A stretch of DNA of 14,478 bases from a virus (taxonomy: Duplodnaviria > Heunggongvirae > Uroviricota > Caudoviricetes). The notes beneath the pieces are model-generated. The model did not search any database and was not told where the DNA came from. It saw only the letters and a list, made by a program, of their open reading frames with translations. Of this stretch, positions 7,437 through 14,478 are shown in pieces. The stretch covers positions 1-14,478 of the IMG/VR virus record IMGVR_UViG_2713896899_000013, one strand, 5' to 3'. How positions within the stretch are numbered: the first letter of the stretch is position 1; the number at the start of each line of letters is the position of its first letter. The position numbers and the translations under genes are program-made.

Positions 7437-7996
7437 GCGTTAGTTTCTCCACAGTCACGACACGCCACGGCGCCCGGAGCTGCACACTCGCGGGCGTCAT
7501 TACTTTCTGAAATGCAAAAAATTTTGTAGACCAGTGCAGCATGCTCCTGCAGCTTCGAAATTGAGAGGTACAGCTCGTCGTTAATTGCTGTCTTCTCATG
7601 CGGTTCCACCACACCGTCTTCGATTGCAGAACGAATCTGTTTTGAATAACTGCCGATCTGTTCAATGACTTCCAGCAGACGCTGGTTAACATCGGCATTG
7701 TCCACATCCTCGACGTCAGGAAGAGACACAAAGACGCCATTTGCAGACTGCGCCACAGCATCAGCAATGAAGTGAGTGCCACCAGCACGCTGTAAAACCA
7801 TTGCCCATCCCAGCGGAAAAATCTGATCGCCATCTGCACGAAGGCGGTTGAATAAAGCGTTCTCTGTTACATCCAGCCAGTCAGCCGCTTCAGCGTAACC
7901 ACCCGGCAACGCCGCGATAGTTTTTCTGACAGCTTTCACGTACCACTCAGGCTGTTTTTCTATTTTCCAGTGATGCTTACCCACGATTAGCCTCAT
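7433..7996 (-). CDS. CII-like / YdaT-like regulatory protein
   Basis: Position immediately downstream of cro in the pR operon; 187 aa with a C-terminal Cys cluster; family assignment is from memory of prophage 'regulatory protein CII' (YdaT-like) proteins and is uncertain. Confidence 0.45.
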
Positions 7997-8027
7997 CGTT
8001 CTGTGGTTAAAAATTGAAAGTGTTCTG

Positions 8028-8228
8028 CTAATCTTTCGGATAGATATCCGGTCTTAAGTCAGATTTCGTAATTGCACCTGACGTGCATTGCTCAAGTTTT
8101 TTAGCCAGCACAAAACTGGCTTTTTTATAGCCATTGAAAACCAGCCGTAAGTAGCCAGGTGTTGAGCCAACTTTTCCGGCCAACTCGCCCTGCTGTTCTT
8201 TGGTTAAAGAGTCCCAATACGCTTTCAT
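8028..8228 (-). CDS. cro: Cro-like HTH regulator (YdaS/DUF1019-type), 66 aa
   Basis: MKAYWDSLTKEQQGELAGKVGSTPGYLRLVFNGYKK...ITKSDLRPDIYP; divergent from cI across an operator region; GGAGGT Shine-Dalgarno 9 nt upstream of the ATG at 8228. The track ORF 8028-8531 is an upstream extension through the operator region. Confidence 0.75.
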   Translation of the reverse strand: MKAYWDSLTKEQQGELAGKVGSTPGYLRLVFNGYKKASFVLAKKLEQCTSGAITKSDLRPDIYPKD

Positions 8229-8318
8229 ACAATATGTACCTCCGGTGTACATATTACATGATTGAAATGAACCTTCAAGATACTTGTACCTTAACGGTAC
8301 AAGGGTTTTAATTTCGTT
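8229..8318. promoter_or_regulatory. Divergent pR/pRM-like control region with two 19-bp operators (core TGTAC-N7-GTACA)
   Basis: Operators ATGTACCTCCGGTGTACAT (8234-8252) and TTGTACCTTAACGGTACAA (8284-8302). Minus-strand promoter: -35 TTGAAG (8278-8273), 16-nt spacer, -10 TAATAT (8256-8251). Plus-strand promoter: -35 TTGTAC (8284-8289), 17-nt spacer, -10 TTTAAT (8307-8312), start near the A of the cI ATG, implying a leaderless cI mRNA. Confidence 0.6.
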
Positions 8319-8993
8319 ATGAAAACAATCCATGACATCCGGCGGTCTAACGCCAGAAAACTGAGAGATGGTGTTGGCGGGAATTCTTCCTTTGCCACTA
8401 TGATTGATCGCGAGCCAACCCAGACCAGCAGGTTTATGGGAGATGGTGCTACTAAAAATATCGGTGACAGCATGGCACGACACATCGAAAAATGTTTCGA
8501 CCTGCCTGTCGGATGGCTCGATCAAGAACACCAGACAACGAACATCACAAAAAAACCTGATGTTTCAATCACTAATAAACAAATCACATTAGTCCCTGTC
8601 ATATCATGGGTACAGGCCGGAGCATGGAAAGAAGTTGGATATTCTGAGGTTGATTTGAGCACAGCAGAAACGTATCCCTGCCCTGTACCCTGTGGGGAAA
8701 TGACTTATATCTTGCGGGTGATAGGTGATTCAATGATTGATGAGTACCGCCCGGGAGACATGATTTTTGTCGATCCTGAAGTACCTGCCTGCCACGGTGA
8801 CGACGTTATTGCATTGATGCACGATACAGGTGAAACCACCTTCAAAAGGTTGATAGAAGATGGGACACAGCGTTATCTCAAAGCGTTAAACCCAAACTGG
8901 CCTGAGCCTTACATTAAGATCAACGGTAATTGCTCTATAATTGGAACTGTGATTTTCTCAGGAAAACCAAGAAGATACAAAATCAAAGCCTAA
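8319..8993 (+). CDS. cI: CI-type prophage repressor (HTH plus S24 LexA-like peptidase domain)
   Basis: C-terminal VIGDSM...GD...FKRL pattern of the S24 self-cleaving domain; divergent from cro; no Shine-Dalgarno, consistent with a leaderless transcript. Confidence 0.85.
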   Translation: MKTIHDIRRSNARKLRDGVGGNSSFATMIDREPTQTSRFMGDGATKNIGDSMARHIEKCFDLPVGWLDQEHQTTNITKKPDVSITNKQITLVPVISWVQAGAWKEVGYSEVDLSTAETYPCPVPCGEMTYILRVIGDSMIDEYRPGDMIFVDPEVPACHGDDVIALMHDTGETTFKRLIEDGTQRYLKALNPNWPEPYIKINGNCSIIGTVIFSGKPRRYKIKA

Positions 8994-9005
8994 TCAATGT
9001 TTATG

Positions 9006-9029
9006 AACCTGCTTCGGCAGGTTTTTTTA
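9006..9029 (+). terminator. Intrinsic terminator after cI
   Basis: Stem AACCTGC / GCAGGTT with loop TTCG, followed by TTTTTTT. Confidence 0.65.
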
Positions 9030-9032
9030 TAC

Positions 9033-9078
9033 TTGACAATGTACCCATGAGATACATAATGTACCCAAGAGAAACAAC
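9033..9078 (+). promoter_or_regulatory. pL-like promoter overlapped by operators of the same family as those at pR/pRM
   Basis: -35 TTGACA (9033-9038), 16-nt spacer, -10 CATAAT (9055-9060); operator ATGTACCCATGAGATACAT (9039-9057) has the same 19-bp TGTAC-N7 architecture; a degenerate second copy lies at 9058-9076. Confidence 0.55.
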
Positions 9079-9145
9079 AAACAGGCAGGACGCCCACGAA
9101 GTAGCCGCCAGGGGCATATGAAGTCCTGGATGATTCGTTAGTAAC

Positions 9146-9170
9146 AAAAAAAGCGTCGTACAGGACGCTT
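9146..9170 (-). terminator. Intrinsic terminator of the minus-strand secreted-protein gene
   Basis: Minus-strand reading: stem AAGCGTC / GACGCTT followed by TTTTTTTG. Confidence 0.6.
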
Positions 9171-9183
9171 CGCTCTTTAACAA
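9171..9183 (+). promoter_or_regulatory. boxA-like element (CGCTCTTTAACAA) directly after a hairpin, about 105 nt downstream of the pL-like start
   Basis: 12 of 13 match to the rrn boxA consensus TGCTCTTTAACAA and contains the lambda boxA core CGCTCTT; hairpin-then-boxA order as in rrn leaders. Confidence 0.4.
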
Positions 9184-9193
9184 TCTGGATGAC

Positions 9194-9709
9194 TTATCGG
9201 TCAGATTTAAACTGGGGTTCTGGCAAAACTGGTGGTGTTGAATCTTCAAATCGTAACCAGTGTTCCCAAATATCATGTGTTCGTAATTTCTGTAGACTAA
9301 TTTGACGCGATGCAATTGCGGAATTAGTGGTTACTCCACCAGAAGCATCGCCCTCTACTGACGTTGAGGCTTTTTCTACTAATTCTGACCAAGCTTCACT
9401 TTCTGCGTCAAAAGCTTCTGTTAAGTCCCGCAGACGCTGTGGCTCATTTTTATGGTCTTCCTTCAAACGATTCAAAGCGGCAGTTGAATACTTATTCCTG
9501 ACCCATTCGATCTGAGTTAGCTGAATCCGCAGACAATTATCTATATCAATGGTTGTGTTCTGAGGCATGTCAGAACAAGAAATATAAAAGGTCACAACTC
9601 CACCGTTCAAACTACTGCCCGGTTCGATTAAAACATTAGAGGAATTTGACGTAGTCGGCAATATTAATGCTAACGACAAAACCACATGTTTAACAGAAAT
9701 CGCACCCAT
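9194..9709 (-). CDS. Small secreted/periplasmic protein (171 aa), possibly LprI/DUF1311-like; gene lies antisense to the pL direction
   Basis: AGAGGG Shine-Dalgarno upstream of the ATG at 9709; N-terminal hydrophobic signal-like segment VVLSLALIL; own terminator; the family guess is weak. Confidence 0.55.
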   Translation of the reverse strand: MGAISVKHVVLSLALILPTTSNSSNVLIEPGSSLNGGVVTFYISCSDMPQNTTIDIDNCLRIQLTQIEWVRNKYSTAALNRLKEDHKNEPQRLRDLTEAFDAESEAWSELVEKASTSVEGDASGGVTTNSAIASRQISLQKLRTHDIWEHWLRFEDSTPPVLPEPQFKSDR

Positions 9710-10040
9710 TTAAATTGCCCTCTTAAGAACAAGGTCATCCAGATTAACCGAAACCTGGTTATTGGGGAATAACCAAATCCACCTCGCCTGATGTGGCTAA
9801 AAGCAGGCACATAACAGCTAAGTATTTTCAACCAGAGAGAATCCTTAGCGTTGTGGTGAATGCGGCTCAGCGCACGCGGGTTAAGGTTGAGGCTGACAGT
9901 CGACCTTCTGTGGATACCCACCCGTCTGGTGTGCAACCTTCGCCAGGCACCGGGAGGCACCCGGCACCACAACTTTATGCTGTGTGTAGTCTTGGGGGTA
10001 CCAGTTTGTACCCTTGCTTCCGGCTGGTACCGTCCTTTTT

Positions 10041-10129
10041 ACAAAACAGAGAAGAGCATCACCGGACGACGGGCTCATAACCCAATCCATCCGGGCGGCT
10101 GCCACCGCAGGTGTTCTTCTCTGTTTTGT
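10041..10129. repeat. Perfect 15-bp inverted repeat (ACAAAACAGAGAAGA / TCTTCTCTGTTTTGT) flanking a 59-bp GC-rich segment
   Basis: Read directly; arms at 10041-10055 and 10115-10129; lies in a non-coding, hairpin-rich stretch immediately upstream of the yfdP-like gene. Confidence 0.8.
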
Positions 10130-10177
10130 GGAGAAACCAACTGGCCTTGCAGGGTCGATATGATGAGGAGCAGCAAA

Positions 10178-10540
10178 ATGGCTAGCGAACGCAGTACTGA
10201 TGTGCAGGCATTTATCGGGGAGCTGGACGGCGGCGTATTTGAAACCAAAATCGGCGCAGTTCTCAGTGAAGTCGCTTCCGGTGTGATGAACACGAAAACC
10301 AAAGGTAAGGTCTCACTCAACCTGGAAATCGAACCATTTGATGAGAACCGTGTGAAAATCAAACACAAACTCTCATATGTTCGCCCGACTAACCGCGGGA
10401 AAATTTCCGAAGAAGACACCACCGAAACGCCGATGTATGTCAATCGCGGTGGTCGCCTGACTATTCTGCAGGAAGACCAGGGACAATTACTAACTCTTGC
10501 CGGTGAACCTGACGGAAAACTCCGCGCAGCAGGTCATTAA
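10178..10540 (+). CDS. YfdP-like hypothetical protein (120 aa)
   Basis: GAGGAG 7 nt upstream of the ATG at 10178; size and position upstream of the YfdQ-like gene match the CPS-53 yfdP-yfdQ arrangement as I recall it. The track ORF 9860-10540 is a non-coding upstream extension. Confidence 0.6.
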   Translation: MASERSTDVQAFIGELDGGVFETKIGAVLSEVASGVMNTKTKGKVSLNLEIEPFDENRVKIKHKLSYVRPTNRGKISEEDTTETPMYVNRGGRLTILQEDQGQLLTLAGEPDGKLRAAGH

Positions 10541-10605
10541 TATCGTTCTTAATTAACTGATTATTTATCTCATCACTGAATATCTTTATATAGTGAGGAC
10601 TTATT

Positions 10606-11430
10606 ATGTCTCAGAACTTAGACGCAACCGCAATTAATCAAATCCATGCCCTTATTTCTGCTCAGGGTGTTAATGAAATTATCAGTAAGATTGGTGCCGA
10701 TGCTGTGGCATTGCCTGAGAATTTCCGCATTCATGATCTGGAAAAATTTAATTTAAATCGCTTCCGTTTCCGTGGTGCGCTTTCCACTGCCAGCATCGAT
10801 GACTTTACCCATTATTCCAAAGATCTTGCAGATGAAGGCACCCGCTGCTTTATCGATGCTGATAATATGCGTGCTGTCAGTGTGCTTAATCTGGGTACTA
10901 TTGATGAACCAGGTCACGCAGATAACACCGCCACTCTCAAACTGAAAAAGACAGCACCGTTCTCTGCACTGTTGTCTGTTAACGGCGAGCGTAACTCCCA
11001 GAAGTCACTGGCAGAATGGATTGAAGACTGGGCCGACTACCTTGTGGGCTTTGATGCTAATGGTGACACCATTCAGGCAACCAAAGCGGCTGCGGCGATC
11101 CGTAAAATCACGATTGAAGCAAACCAGACCGCTGATTTTGAAGATAATGACTTCAGCGGCAAACGCTCCCTGATGGAGTCTGTCGAAGCGAAGACCAAAG
11201 ACATTATGCCAGTGGCATTTGAATTTAAATGCGTTCCGTTTGAAGGCCTGAAAGAACGTCCGTTTAAATTACGCCTCAGCATTATCACTGGCGATCGTCC
11301 GGTACTGGTTCTGCGCATTATTCAGCTGGAAGCGGTGCAGGAGGAAATGGCTAACGAATTTCGTGATCTGCTTGTTGAGAAATTCAAAGACAGCAAAGTA
11401 GAAACCTTTATTGGTACTTTCACCGCCTGA
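10606..11430 (+). CDS. yfdQ: YfdQ-like protein (DUF2303 family), 274 aa
   Basis: GAGGA Shine-Dalgarno; length identical to E. coli K-12 YfdQ and the same gene order with the HD-domain gene; the assignment is from memory, not a search. Confidence 0.7.
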
Positions 11431-11445
11431 TTTCATTACTGCAAA

Positions 11446-11470
11446 TGCCCCTGCGGGGGCATTTATGGAA
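11446..11470 (+). terminator. Terminator-like hairpin after the yfdQ-like gene
   Basis: AAATGCCCC tgcg GGGGCATTT, 9-bp stem; the following U-tract is weak (TTTATGG). Confidence 0.4.
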
Positions 11471-11557
11471 ACATAATTTACTCAATAATCGCCGGATGGT
11501 GAGGGCTTCCTTTTACCCGAATTCAGCGCGGTGCAGCGCATATACGTGGAGAACAAA

Positions 11558-12094
11558 ATGTCATTTATTAAAACTTTTTCCGGGAAGCATTTTTATTATG
11601 ACAAGATAAATAAAGACGACATCGATATTAACGATATCGCGGTTTCCCTTTCAAATATCTGTCGCTTTGCAGGACATCTTTCACACTTCTACAGCGTCGC
11701 CCAACATGCGGTGCTTTGCAGCCAGCTGGTACCGCAGGAATTTGCTTTTGAAGCGTTAATGCATGATGCAACAGAAGCTTATTGTCAGGACATCCCCGCG
11801 CCACTGAAACGCCTTCTTCCTGACTATAAACAGATGGAAGAAAAAATAGACGCCGTGATCCGTGAGAAATACGGGTTACCCCCGGTGATGAGCACGCCCG
11901 TGAAATATGTCGATCTCATCATGCTGGCAACCGAACGCCGCGATCTCGGGCTTGATGATGGCTCTTTCTGGCCTGTACTGGAAGGAATCCCGGCAACAGA
12001 GATGTTCAACGTGATTCCACTGGCACCGGGCCATGCCTACGGGATGTTTATAGAACGCTTCAACGAGTTATCGGAGTTACGCAAATGCGCATGA
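11558..12094 (+). CDS. yfdR: HD-domain phosphohydrolase (YfdR-like 5'-deoxynucleotidase), 178 aa
   Basis: H...HD metal-binding motif (VAQHAVL ... ALMHDATEAY); GGAGAA 5 nt upstream of the ATG at 11558; the track's 11531 start is an upstream GTG. Confidence 0.8.
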   Translation: MSFIKTFSGKHFYYDKINKDDIDINDIAVSLSNICRFAGHLSHFYSVAQHAVLCSQLVPQEFAFEALMHDATEAYCQDIPAPLKRLLPDYKQMEEKIDAVIREKYGLPPVMSTPVKYVDLIMLATERRDLGLDDGSFWPVLEGIPATEMFNVIPLAPGHAYGMFIERFNELSELRKCA

Positions 12095-12447
12095 ATGTCT
12101 TCGAAATGGAAGGGTTTCTTCGCGGGAAATGTGTACCGCGAGATCTGAAAGTGAATGAAACGGATGCTGAATACCTGGTACGTAAATTCGATGCGCTTGA
12201 AGCTAAATGTGCAGCACAGGAAAACAAAGTAATACCTGTGTCAGCTGAACTGCCGCCAGCAAATGAAAATGTTCTGTTATTTGATGCTAATGGAGAAGGC
12301 TGGCTGATTGGCTGGCGTTCTCTCTGGTACACATGGGGGCAAAAAGAAACCGGAGAATGGCAGTGGACATTTCAGGTCGGGGACCTTGAAAACGTCAATA
12401 TCACTCACTGGGCAGTAATGCCGAAAGCACCGGAGACTAAGAAATGA
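12085..12447 (+). CDS. yfdS: YfdS-like protein (DUF551 family), 120 aa
   Basis: GGAG 8 nt upstream of the ATG; overlaps the yfdR-like 3' end by 10 nt; size matches K-12 YfdS. Confidence 0.7.
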   Translation: MRMNVFEMEGFLRGKCVPRDLKVNETDAEYLVRKFDALEAKCAAQENKVIPVSAELPPANENVLLFDANGEGWLIGWRSLWYTWGQKETGEWQWTFQVGDLENVNITHWAVMPKAPETKK

Positions 12448-12650
12448 GCGTGATAAAAACTCATACAGTAATTGTTATCACCCGAGACGGTGAAAAGCGG
12501 ATGAAACTACATTCCACTGAAACGTCCTGGGTTGCTGGACGTTGTGAATCCTACGACAAAAAGACTGGTTACCGTTGGGGTGCGCCAAACATGCGTCGCC
12601 GTCTGCTCCTGGACAGCATCAGGCCAATTAAACAGGTAGCAACCAGATAA
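12444..12650 (+). CDS. Small hypothetical protein (68 aa), translationally coupled to the yfdS-like gene
   Basis: ATGA start/stop overlap; GGAGA 7 nt upstream of the ATG. Confidence 0.55.
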   Translation: MSVIKTHTVIVITRDGEKRMKLHSTETSWVAGRCESYDKKTGYRWGAPNMRRRLLLDSIRPIKQVATR

Positions 12651-12718
12651 CAAAATTAATTATCAGGACTGAAATTTGATATTACTGCCCGTGTGCAGCG
12701 GGCTAAGTGGAGAAACAT

Positions 12719-12925
12719 ATGCTGAACCTCGATTGTGTTCCTATCTCAACTTATTGCAAAGAAACTGGCGAAACTCCTGAAGCAATAAACAAACGTGTAC
12801 AGCGCGGTGTTTGGCGTGAAGGTGTTCAGGTTTTAAAGGTTGAAGGCGTTAAGGAGAGGTGGATTGATCTTAGTGAGGTTGCAAAATGGGCCAGACAAAA
12901 CTGCTCAAACTACCGCGCGGCGTAA
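12719..12925 (+). CDS. xis: Excisionase-like small DNA-binding protein
   Basis: Small basic protein directly upstream of, and overlapping, the integrase gene, as lambda xis does with int; GGAGAA upstream of the ATG at 12719 (the track's 12707 is a GTG). Confidence 0.6.
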   Translation: MLNLDCVPISTYCKETGETPEAINKRVQRGVWREGVQVLKVEGVKERWIDLSEVAKWARQNCSNYRAA

Positions 12926-14064
12926 CAATCAGGAAACACCGCCAGGGCGAAACGATCAATATAACTTTCACCTACAAAGGAGTTAAATGTCGTGAGCCTC
13001 TTTCCAATCTGGAAGTAACACCAAAGAACATTAAATACGCCGAGCGCACACTCGGCGAAATTCATAATAAGATCGAAAGGGGAACATTCATTTATGCGGA
13101 ATATTTTCCCCGTTCTGCTCGTTTGAAAATTTTTGGTAATGCTGCTGCAGGCAAAACGGTAAAAATGTACCTGGACGAATACCTTGAAATCTGCGAAACG
13201 AGAAAACTTTCACCATCTACGATTGGTGGCTATAAAAAATGCCGTAGTGCGTTAGCCTCACTCCACATTTGCCCTGCAAGTGAATTAACACCAGCAATCC
13301 TGAAAGCGTGGATTCAAAGCCAGAAAACGACCTTAAAAACAATTCGCAACCAGTTATCTTTCCTGCGGTCAGCACTTGATGAAGCCGTAACCGATGGGGT
13401 ACTTCAAATTAACCCCGTATCGTTGGTAACTGCTTCGCGCTACCAAAGTGATAAGTCAGAAGCAGAAAGCAGCTACGTGGTTGATCCGCTATCACCAGCA
13501 GAAGTTGATGCATTACTAGCGGCTGCTGGAAATAAACAATGGGAGAATCTGTTCCGGTTCGCCATACATACAGGCCTGCGTAGTTCTGAATTATGTGCCC
13601 TTCGATGGCGTGATATCGACTTTGTTGGAAAAACTGCCCATGTCCAGAGCGCAAGTGTTGTCGGTGTTATCAAAGGGACAAAGACAAAAGCCGGTACTCG
13701 TAAAGTTGAACTGACAGAAGAGGCAATGTTGGCGCTGATAAATCAGAAGCCATTTACATTCATGAAGGATGCTACTGTCTTTGAAGATCCAAAGACCAAT
13801 AAGCCTTGGGCAAGTGCTGATGCAATTAGGAAAAAAGCATGGGTGCCAATATTGCGAAAAGCAGGTATTCGTTACAGAAACCCATATCAGACCAGGCATA
13901 CATTCGCCACCAGCCATATCAGCCGAGGGGCAAACCTGTTTTGGCTTTCAGTTCAAATGGGGCATAAAGGGCCGGAGATGCTTTTCAGGCACTATGGTCG
14001 ATATTTGAAAGACTATGATGGAAATACAGAACACAAGCCTAAGCTGGTCAGTGGTAAGACATAA
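12886..14064 (+). CDS. int: Tyrosine recombinase / phage integrase (392 aa)
   Basis: C-terminal catalytic region with conserved R (GLRSSE), H-x-x-R (QTRHTFAT) and the terminal H...Y (HKGPEMLFRHYGRY) pattern; sits next to the att core. Confidence 0.9.
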   Translation: MGQTKLLKLPRGVTIRKHRQGETINITFTYKGVKCREPLSNLEVTPKNIKYAERTLGEIHNKIERGTFIYAEYFPRSARLKIFGNAAAGKTVKMYLDEYLEICETRKLSPSTIGGYKKCRSALASLHICPASELTPAILKAWIQSQKTTLKTIRNQLSFLRSALDEAVTDGVLQINPVSLVTASRYQSDKSEAESSYVVDPLSPAEVDALLAAAGNKQWENLFRFAIHTGLRSSELCALRWRDIDFVGKTAHVQSASVVGVIKGTKTKAGTRKVELTEEAMLALINQKPFTFMKDATVFEDPKTNKPWASADAIRKKAWVPILRKAGIRYRNPYQTRHTFATSHISRGANLFWLSVQMGHKGPEMLFRHYGRYLKDYDGNTEHKPKLVSGKT

Positions 14065-14137
14065 AAGGAGCCGCAAAAGATCCGCATAATAAAATGATTA
14101 GTATTAATCGTTTTATTTCAGCTAATTATAAAAATAC

Positions 14138-14169
14138 GGACTCGGGTTCAACTCCCGCCAGCTCCACCA
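14138..14169 (+). other. ssrA: Attachment-site core: copy of the last ~32 nt of ssrA (tmRNA) ending in CCA, with one mismatch; not a complete tmRNA gene
   Basis: GGACTCGGGTTCAACTCCCGCCAGCTCCACCA versus the E. coli tmRNA 3' end GGACGCGGGTTCAACTCCCGCCAGCTCCACCA (recalled); the sequence upstream is the int gene, so the 5' 330 nt of ssrA are absent here. Confidence 0.8.
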
Positions 14170-14214
14170 AAATTCTCCATCGGTGATTACCAGAGTCATC
14201 CGATGAAGTCCTAA

Positions 14215-14248
14215 GAGCCCGCACGGCGCAAGCCCTGCGGGCTTTTTT
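14215..14248 (+). terminator. Intrinsic terminator downstream of the ssrA fragment (likely the native ssrA terminator)
   Basis: Stem GCCCGCA / TGCGGGC followed by TTTTTT. Confidence 0.7.
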
Positions 14249-14317
14249 GTACCCTCAATTTGTCCCGCGAAGTCCGAAGAGAACTAATTAAATCCGAACC
14301 TTTTAGGCCCATTGATA

Positions 14318-14352
14318 GGCCCAACGAAAAGCTCTATTGTTTTCGTTGGGCC
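14318..14352. promoter_or_regulatory. Perfect 13-bp palindrome upstream of the second integrase
   Basis: GGCCCAACGAAAA (14318-14330) and TTTTCGTTGGGCC (14340-14352) around a 9-nt loop, plus a direct repeat AGGCCCA at 14305 and 14317; no U-tract, so it is more likely a binding site or 5' UTR structure than a terminator. Confidence 0.4.
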
Positions 14353-14372
14353 TAAACGCATGGAGACTCCCC

Positions 14373-14478
14373 ATGGCAAGAAAAACCAAGCCGTTAACCG
14401 ATACGGAAATCAAAGCCGCCAAACCTAAAGATGCCGATTACCAGCTGTATGATGGTGAAGTGGTCAACAAAAACTGGC
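14373..14478 (+). CDS. 5' end of a second tyrosine integrase, P4 / CP4-57 IntA-like (partial; runs off the window)
   Basis: MARKTKPLTDTEIKAAKPKDADYQLYDG matches the N-terminal arm-binding motif of P4-family integrases; GGAG 7 nt upstream; located after the ssrA 3' end as intA is in E. coli K-12. Confidence 0.7.
   Translation, partial: MARKTKPLTDTEIKAAKPKDADYQLYDGEVVNKNW

Follow-up and report, generated by a model that had tools for sequence, protein, structure and literature searches.

The window analysed here, a stretch of 14,478 nucleotides (nt) of a Caudoviricetes virus (IMG/VR record IMGVR_UViG_2713896899_000013, positions 1 to 14,478), belongs to a lambdoid prophage of SfV/e14/CPS-53 type without an N gene and includes its early-left (pL) promoter together with the leader that follows. 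The leader combines a 64-nt folded RNA (9076–9139) with an rrn-type boxA (9171–9183), and we put at about one in two the probability that this boxA recruits host Nus factors and so renders RNA polymerase resistant to Rho across about 1.1 kilobases (kb), with the leader RNA acting as the phage-specific cis element. No other part of the site is as conserved or as informative as the leader RNA. A preceding sequence-only reading had described a pL-like promoter, a hairpin and an rrn-type boxA; its promoter and its boxA stand and every sequence feature was found where it had been placed, while the 64-nt RNA between promoter and hairpin had been overlooked. The site is made up of the following features.

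9033–9060, plus strand: pL promoter, TTGACA-16-CATAAT, 11 of 12 positions as in the consensus, annotated as a promoter in phage Ayreon
9076–9139, plus strand: leader RNA, a three-way junction of 64 nt, recognised from covariation, RNAalifold and a covariance model (89.8 bits here)
9076–9081 with 9134–9139, plus strand: helix P1 of the leader RNA, with the variants AGCGAA/UUCGCU, AACGAA/UUCGUU, AGCAAA/UUUGCU, GUCAUC/GAUGAC and CCACC/GGUGG
9084–9086 with 9092–9094, plus strand: helix P1a, a small GGC-loop-GCC hairpin with a variable loop
9108–9112 with 9125–9129, plus strand: helix P2, CCNNN/N'N'N'GG, with many compensatory variants
9151–9170, minus strand: terminator hairpin of the convergent cargo gene, with U7 on the minus strand (9144–9150), kept together with the boxA in 21 variants
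9171–9183, plus strand: rrn-type boxA, RNA CGCUCUUUAACAA (core 9172–9182), recognised from its match to the consensus, its conservation and its position near the leader RNA

As judged from its sequence, strand and conservation, the boxA belongs to the rrn/consensus BoxA class. The sequence CGCTCTTTAACAA at 9171–9183 is the sole site in the window that matches the rrn boxA 13-mer TGCTCTTTAACAA with at most two mismatches, and the 12-mer GCTCTTTAACAA within it (9172–9183) is exact, agreeing with rrn boxA at 12 of 12 positions, where shuffled sequences gave 0.10 matches at up to one mismatch. Positions 9172–9182 also fit perfectly the published functional consensus GYTCTTTAANA (PMC5725501). The site lies on the transcribed strand about 104 nt past the predicted +1 (about 9067) of the promoter, so that the exact 12-base core is practically where the sequence-only reading had announced an rrn-type boxA, about 105 nt after the pL start. 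That reading had furthermore seen the lambda boxA core in the site, and here the rrn match holds but the lambda form has to be corrected: lambda boxA is CGCUCUUA, whereas the window site reads CGCUCUUUA, which we take to be the form of P22, phi21 and rrn, with one extra U relative to lambda.

Together with the hairpin in front of it, the boxA forms a module that reads AAAAAAGCGCCC-loop-GGACGCTT-N-GCTCTTTAA-M-AAT across 21 distinct variants. In all 21 of these GCTCTTTAA is unchanged; the variants differ only in the base that precedes the G and where the consensus has N, and at least ten different cargo flanks follow downstream of the module. The boxA is retained in relatives that carry other repressors and other cargo genes. 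In a sample of 166 leader-bearing loci comprising 1.62 megabases, the consensus boxA was matched 41 times, against about 6 matches expected by chance over both strands, and 31 of the 41 are sense-strand sites no more than 150 nt downstream of the leader RNA, several others being sense-strand sites farther along. With so large a share of the sites near the same leader, it is very unlikely that the boxA occurs there by chance.

The strongest argument for a function of the boxA comes from T5-like phages, in which a boxA occurs independently behind the leader RNA. The terminal repeat of the Providencia phages PR1 and PSTCR5 carries a pre-early operon that opens with the promoter TTGCTT-17-TATACT, followed by the leader RNA (70 bits) and, 10 nt later, by CGCTCTTTAAAAA, with no hairpin between leader RNA and boxA. 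Two further pre-early promoters of PR1 are each followed by CGCTCTTTAACAAT; in our PR1 locus (L179) the three boxA sites are at 3443–3570, with the leader RNA copy, at about 4005 and at about 4415. T5 itself has one perfect sense-strand pre-early boxA (locus L300, about 4988, minus strand) right after a GGCGG...CCGCC hairpin, and this boxA lies inside the annotated 35-codon open reading frame (ORF) T5.009. PHROGs match none of the genes that follow the leader in PR1, and no annotated regulator is common to T5-like and lambdoid carriers, so that, as far as gene content can tell, the common partner of the leader device is most likely a host factor.

The leader RNA was collected by a pattern scan of IMG/VR, which gave more than 120 loci and about 100 distinct variants. 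Among 99 distinct sequences, 90.6% of cells are paired, compared to 68.8% in shuffled alignments, and the covariation score is 0.539 versus 0.143, a value reached by 0 of 500 shuffles, these shuffles not being corrected for phylogeny. In the same sequences, slid controls are all paired at 43% or less and 12 of the 15 pairs show changes on both sides. RNAalifold, as an independent prediction, arrives at the same fold. The joining strand, CACGAAGUAGCCG in the window, is conserved as CACGNAGUAGCYG across variants, P2 is capped by the conserved loop GGCRUAYGAA (in the form GGCAUAYGAA), and AUGA precedes the 3' strand of P1. Among relatives with different immunity regions, the stretch between promoter and hairpin is nearly invariant. 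The leader RNA starts about 10 nt after the predicted +1, which is 15 nt past the -10 element both in the window and in PR1, and in the inspected loci it begins at most about 25 nt from the best promoter-like -10; at so short a distance, the transcript all but begins with it.

No Rfam family matches at its gathering score anywhere in the window, and 8990–9260 yields only chance-level matches at E-values up to 10. Likewise, the literature searched by sequence and topic held no description of this leader RNA or of an N-independent prophage boxA. On these grounds, the leader RNA appears to be a previously undescribed folded RNA with no Rfam family. Its 3' part also contains two mini-ORFs on the plus strand, at 9119–9142 (AUG AAG UCC UGG AUG AUU CGU UAG) and at 9131–9142 (AUG AUU CGU UAG); variants keep the AUG of GGAUGA, and most of them have a stop in frame shortly behind it, which may be a by-product of the RNA structure.

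The covariance model detects a single leader RNA per phage, on the pL side, in the window, SfV, PhiR29_1, e14, ST64B, mEp237 and ZF40, and it detects none in HK022, Ayreon or cdtI. The leader RNA is also present in SfII, SfIV, mEp460, YeP1-3 and many IMG/VR contigs, and by BLAST it was recovered from numerous named temperate phages of Escherichia, Shigella, Salmonella, Klebsiella, Citrobacter, Yersinia, Pectobacterium and Pantoea. In species-representative genomes the covariance model confirms it in Enterobacterales only. The pattern scan of this genome collection was too unspecific by itself: its hits in GC-rich genomes were mostly due to chance, and of the first 100 loci the model upheld only 11, every one from Enterobacterales. 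The carriers have unrelated repressors and unrelated downstream genes, which again argues for a host partner. In two leader classes, those with the P1 variants CCACC/GGUGG or GUCAUC/GAUGAC, a second conserved element comes next, AACGCGCAGCAGGU...ACGUUCCGCYRGCCNGGCGAYAAGGSCA (at 3563–3625 of the mEp237 locus L130 and in four further loci); it forms a small hairpin that appears to covary, and the window does not contain it.

That the promoter at 9033 is topologically the pL of the phage follows from the gene order, which the window shares with SfV, SfIV, PhiR29_1 and PhiR49 and whose backbone is also that of the Escherichia coli K-12 prophages e14 and CPS-53. The surroundings of the site are 98–99% identical to the immunity regions of the Shigella phages SfV and SfIV and the Escherichia phages PhiR29_1 and PhiR49; Stx2c phages, cdtI and Ayreon are remoter relatives. 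The orientation of cI defines the pL side. Within 7900–10700 the predicted promoter is the top promoter-like site, composed of the -35 element TTGACA (9033–9038), a 16-nt spacer and CATAAT (9055–9060), from which the start was predicted. An operator-like inverted repeat, ATGTAC-N7-ATACAT, lies inside its spacer region at 9039–9057 and has the kind of half-site also seen in two inverted repeats of the cI–cro intergenic region (8233–8255 and 8283–8303), which fits a pL under repressor control. The promoter claimed by the sequence-only reading is thus a near-consensus, operator-flanked site downstream of cI and its terminator (given more narrowly as 9005–9024). The features around it are these.

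8028–8228, minus strand: cro, which together with a cII-like ymfL gene heads the rightward operon
8319–8993, plus strand: cI-type (LexA/S24 family) repressor gene, 98–99% identical to the annotated cI of SfV, SfIV and PhiR29
9005–9031, plus strand: intrinsic terminator of cI, an 8-base-pair stem with a T-run, annotated as a terminator in SfV and Ayreon
9194–9709, minus strand: variable cargo (moron) gene for a 171-residue protein, phrog_7681 (E-value 1.8e-78) with a weak LprI match, antisense to the pL transcript
9820–10043, plus strand: prophage small RNA region resembling STnc100, Rfam RF02076 at 36.9 bits (E-value 1.7e-6), below the gathering score of 47
10036–10134, plus strand: long conserved RNA hairpin with an outer helix of about 24 base pairs and inner stems, consensus fold -41 kcal/mol, six pairs changed on both sides
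downstream of the cI terminator, plus strand: pL operon with a yfdP-like gene, yfdQ (DUF2303), yfdR (5'-deoxynucleotidase), a DUF551 gene, xis and int, in the same order as in relatives

The hairpin directly in front of the boxA pairs 9151–9157 with 9164–9170 (-10.6 kcal/mol on the plus strand). Read on the minus strand, it stands 23 nt past the stop codon of the ORF at 9194–9709 and is followed by seven U, and on the plus strand an A-run precedes it and only an imperfect U-tract follows, which makes it a one-way terminator for the convergent cargo gene. The sequence-only reading had assigned it two roles, and they fared differently: as terminator of the antisense gene it was confirmed, whereas its part as boxB, in the boxB-then-boxA order of rrn leaders, was ruled out, since the hairpin is the cargo-gene terminator and is absent where boxA follows the leader RNA in the T5-like Providencia phages. 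An antisense ORF comes next in 18 of 21 loci with boxA, against 30 of 112 loci without it (by crude ORF calling); the terminator hairpin travels with the antisense cargo. The cargo protein of the window has a hydrophobic N-terminus and, by inspection only, a possible signal peptide. Homology with PhiR29_1 and SfIV runs through the boxA to 9188–9190 and is back at 9737–9739, the genes in between being different. The slot at 9188–9739, enclosed by the conserved terminator-plus-boxA module and the conserved right edge at 9737–9739, holds antisense genes that vary by prophage, as seen in four of the loci, and other E. coli prophages with unrelated repressors have the same leader, hairpin and boxA before the same or other antisense genes.

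From the predicted +1 to the first credible sense start codon (about 10160–10178, of the yfdP-like gene), about 1.1 kb of the pL transcript is untranslated, running antisense through the cargo gene, with C exceeding G over 9300–9800. Long untranslated RNAs are classic Rho substrates. The STnc100-like region, which pL transcription has to cross, has at its end a terminator-like hairpin (9994–10035, -20.7 kcal/mol) with U5 at 10036–10040; it overlaps ymfH as annotated in e14 and a frameshifted hypothetical protein of RefSeq. The long hairpin at 10036–10134 is seen in many leader-bearing loci just upstream of the yfdP-like gene, with an inner arm of variable length and with insertions and deletions that are not multiples of three, and it is likely a structured RNA rather than a coding sequence, possibly an RNase III site. 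In scans with Pfam and PHROGs, no ORF of the window matched a family of antiterminators, of the N type or otherwise; the scans took in all plus-strand ORFs of the pL operon, whether large or small, as well as every ORF on the pR side, and with this profile search the earlier statement that no N-like ORF lies downstream is upheld. One ORF at 9860 has an arginine-rich N-terminus (MRLSARGLRLRL...) and was judged spurious as an N-like candidate, because it matches no family and overlaps RNA-like conserved sequence.

On this basis, the following course of events is proposed. Once repression is lifted, the pL transcript from about 9067 would begin with the 64-nt three-helix RNA, and transcription would next read the cargo terminator (9151–9170) backwards and then the boxA (9172–9183). 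The boxA RNA would bind host NusB-S10, which, joined by NusA, NusG and SuhB, would turn the polymerase into an rrn-type, Rho-resistant complex, by means of which pL transcription could get to yfdP, yfdQ, yfdR, xis and int. The leader RNA might act on the polymerase directly, in the manner of HK022 put, or serve as a platform that aids assembly of the Nus complex, and could accordingly be put-like or boxB-like. Such a logic, which needs no phage N protein, is known for ribosomal RNA (rRNA) operons and for arrays of clustered regularly interspaced short palindromic repeats (CRISPR). NusB:NusE binds rrn-type boxA with a dissociation constant of 8 nM, about ten times tighter than the 80–90 nM for lambda nut boxA (PMC2800207), which agrees with a site that works without N. 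In CRISPR arrays, it is established that BoxA keeps Rho from acting on long untranslated transcripts (PMC7665894), and rRNA too is shielded by BoxA/Nus complexes. A wider and more tentative view, possible in our estimation, is that the leader RNA stands for a new class of cis-acting elongation-control RNA, a put analogue unrelated in sequence and fold, which alone or with boxA would assemble a termination-resistant polymerase from host factors only, and which would be used by many N-less temperate phages of Enterobacterales and have been borrowed by T5-like phages for their pre-early operon.

Several observations weigh against the proposed role of boxA and leader RNA. The minimum-energy fold of the window's own leader favours another pairing, 9086–9091 with 9123–9128, and its P1 carries one A.C mismatch; the invariance of the joining strand is partly due to the anchor patterns used in the search, other anchors showing limited variation. 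About 135 of the 166 leader-RNA loci have no consensus boxA nearby, so that the two elements are not obligatorily linked. No boxC-like GU-rich element was found after the boxA, where the sequence UCUGGAUGACUUAUCGG is neither GU-rich nor conserved, and no conserved boxB was found downstream of it, relatives diverging past 9188–9190. Moreover, the boxA is transcribed only after the reversed hairpin and hence cannot help the polymerase to pass that hairpin. Ayreon and cdtI share the backbone and an antisense cargo, yet have neither leader RNA nor boxA, and the device is therefore dispensable in this backbone. When these two phages are aligned to window positions 9090–9992, they agree with the window over pL and roughly the initial 25 nt of the leader and part from it within the leader RNA.

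An explanation of the boxA that we consider unlikely is that it is a passenger, the conserved outer flank of a mobile cassette of terminator and cargo that sits behind the pL leader and is idle in the pL transcript. In lambdoid loci the boxA never stands apart from the terminator hairpin, the two being conserved to the same degree within a highly conserved module, so the conservation of the boxA could partly reflect hitch-hiking or recent spread. The distance of the module from the leader RNA varies (+85, +229 and +568 nt), in Scandinavium it is present behind a different leader class, and phages with the same backbone manage without it. Against a passenger speak the exact match to a 12-base functional consensus, always in sense relative to pL, the variation at only the two positions known to tolerate it, the 31 of 41 matches near the leader and the hairpin-free occurrence in T5-like pre-early leaders, with three sites in PR1 and one in T5.

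That the leader RNA, without help from other factors, acts directly on RNA polymerase as an antiterminator of the HK022 put kind, with the boxA a dispensable accessory in a minority of phages, is in our judgement decidedly unlikely. The leader RNA is indeed far commoner than the boxA, its carriers have unrelated proteins, and it occupies the 5' end of the pL transcript, the same place as putL in HK022 (PMC9378689). It has, however, no similarity to put in sequence or structure, the covariance model is blank in HK022, no second copy exists on the pR side, Ayreon and cdtI lack it, and its statistical link with the boxA suggests that the two cooperate. It would be highly improbable that an RNA-binding antiterminator of the phage, a functional analogue of N, has gone unrecognised and uses the leader RNA as a boxB-like site together with the boxA: the layout of structured RNA and boxA is formally nut-like and several small ORFs of the pL and pR operons have no known function, but no ORF matches an N-like family, and the leader-RNA carriers have no downstream gene in common, the early genes of the T5-like phages being unrelated and without PHROG match. 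Least probable is that pL transcripts mostly end at the reversed hairpin (about 9170–9180) to give an RNA of about 105 nt, for which UUCGCUCUUU after the hairpin on the plus strand could speak, or that the boxA promotes Rho termination in the way BoxA mediates repression at suhB (PMC5725501), since the U-tract is broken right after the stem, the asymmetry of A-run and U-run speaks for a terminator that works solely on the minus strand, a hairpin is missing from the majority of leader-RNA loci, and xis and int, downstream in the same orientation, need transcription from the pL side.

With recruitment of host Nus factors by the boxA as the preferred reading, the site can be compared with known elongation-control systems. 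The rrn leader (boxB-boxA-boxC, acting with NusA, NusB, NusE, NusG, SuhB and S4) has the identical boxA core, GCUCUUUAACAA, and in both cases a promoter-proximal boxA is found in a long untranslated transcript, with structured RNA upstream and no need for a phage protein. In contrast to it, the site has no GU-rich boxC-like element, for which reason it is not a full rrn leader; the hairpin immediately before its boxA is the terminator of a convergent gene, its conserved upstream structure, a three-way junction, bears no relation to rrn boxB, and its promoter is a phage promoter under repressor control. The closest functional analogy may be the stand-alone BoxA of CRISPR arrays, which protects long untranslated RNA from Rho, the very role proposed for the window boxA (PMC7665894). 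Like this BoxA and the one in the 5' untranslated region of suhB (PMC5725501), both known to act via a Nus factor complex, the window site would be a stand-alone consensus boxA outside rRNA operons; unlike them, it lies in a phage early operon, is fused to a cargo terminator and linked to a novel leader RNA, and is known here from sequence.

Like the nut sites of lambda, P22 and phi21, it follows closely on pL in the immunity region of a lambdoid phage, and its boxA has the form of P22, phi21 and rrn. Neither a second boxA nor a second leader RNA was found on the pR side in the window or in 10 related loci, which leaves it without a nutR counterpart, and as it also has no boxB downstream of the boxA and no N gene, it is not a member of the lambda nut class. 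The site resembles HK022 put in that the lambdoid phage has no N, that a conserved and folded RNA of about 65–75 nt stands at the very 5' end of the pL transcript, and that there is no dedicated phage protein. The two differ in that the leader RNA is a three-way junction and put has two stem-loops, that there is no sequence similarity, that each phage has a single leader copy and that association with boxA is not a feature of put. An identity with put was rejected as well by direct comparison, in which putL was read from the HK022 sequence and neither motif searches nor the covariance model matched anything in the HK022 immunity region. The mEpimmI phages were considered as a parallel and set aside as an unrelated case, being Nus-dependent but using the N-like Gp17.

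For the question how processive early-left transcription is achieved in the many lambdoid prophages without N, such as e14, SfV, SfII, SfIV, ST64B and the Gifsy-like mEp237, the put RNAs of HK022 type are, to our knowledge, the only answer offered so far. For these prophages, the locus described here offers a concrete and testable device, in which a strongly covarying leader RNA is combined with an exact rrn boxA. If the proposed role is true, antitermination by BoxA and Nus factors would reach beyond rRNA operons and CRISPR arrays into phage early operons without any phage-encoded factor, and this would explain how antisense cargo can be inserted into the operon without polar effects. It would also define a new and widespread RNA family of which E. 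coli K-12 carries one copy, in e14, and the leader RNA itself may, should its function be confirmed, constitute a new class of RNA.

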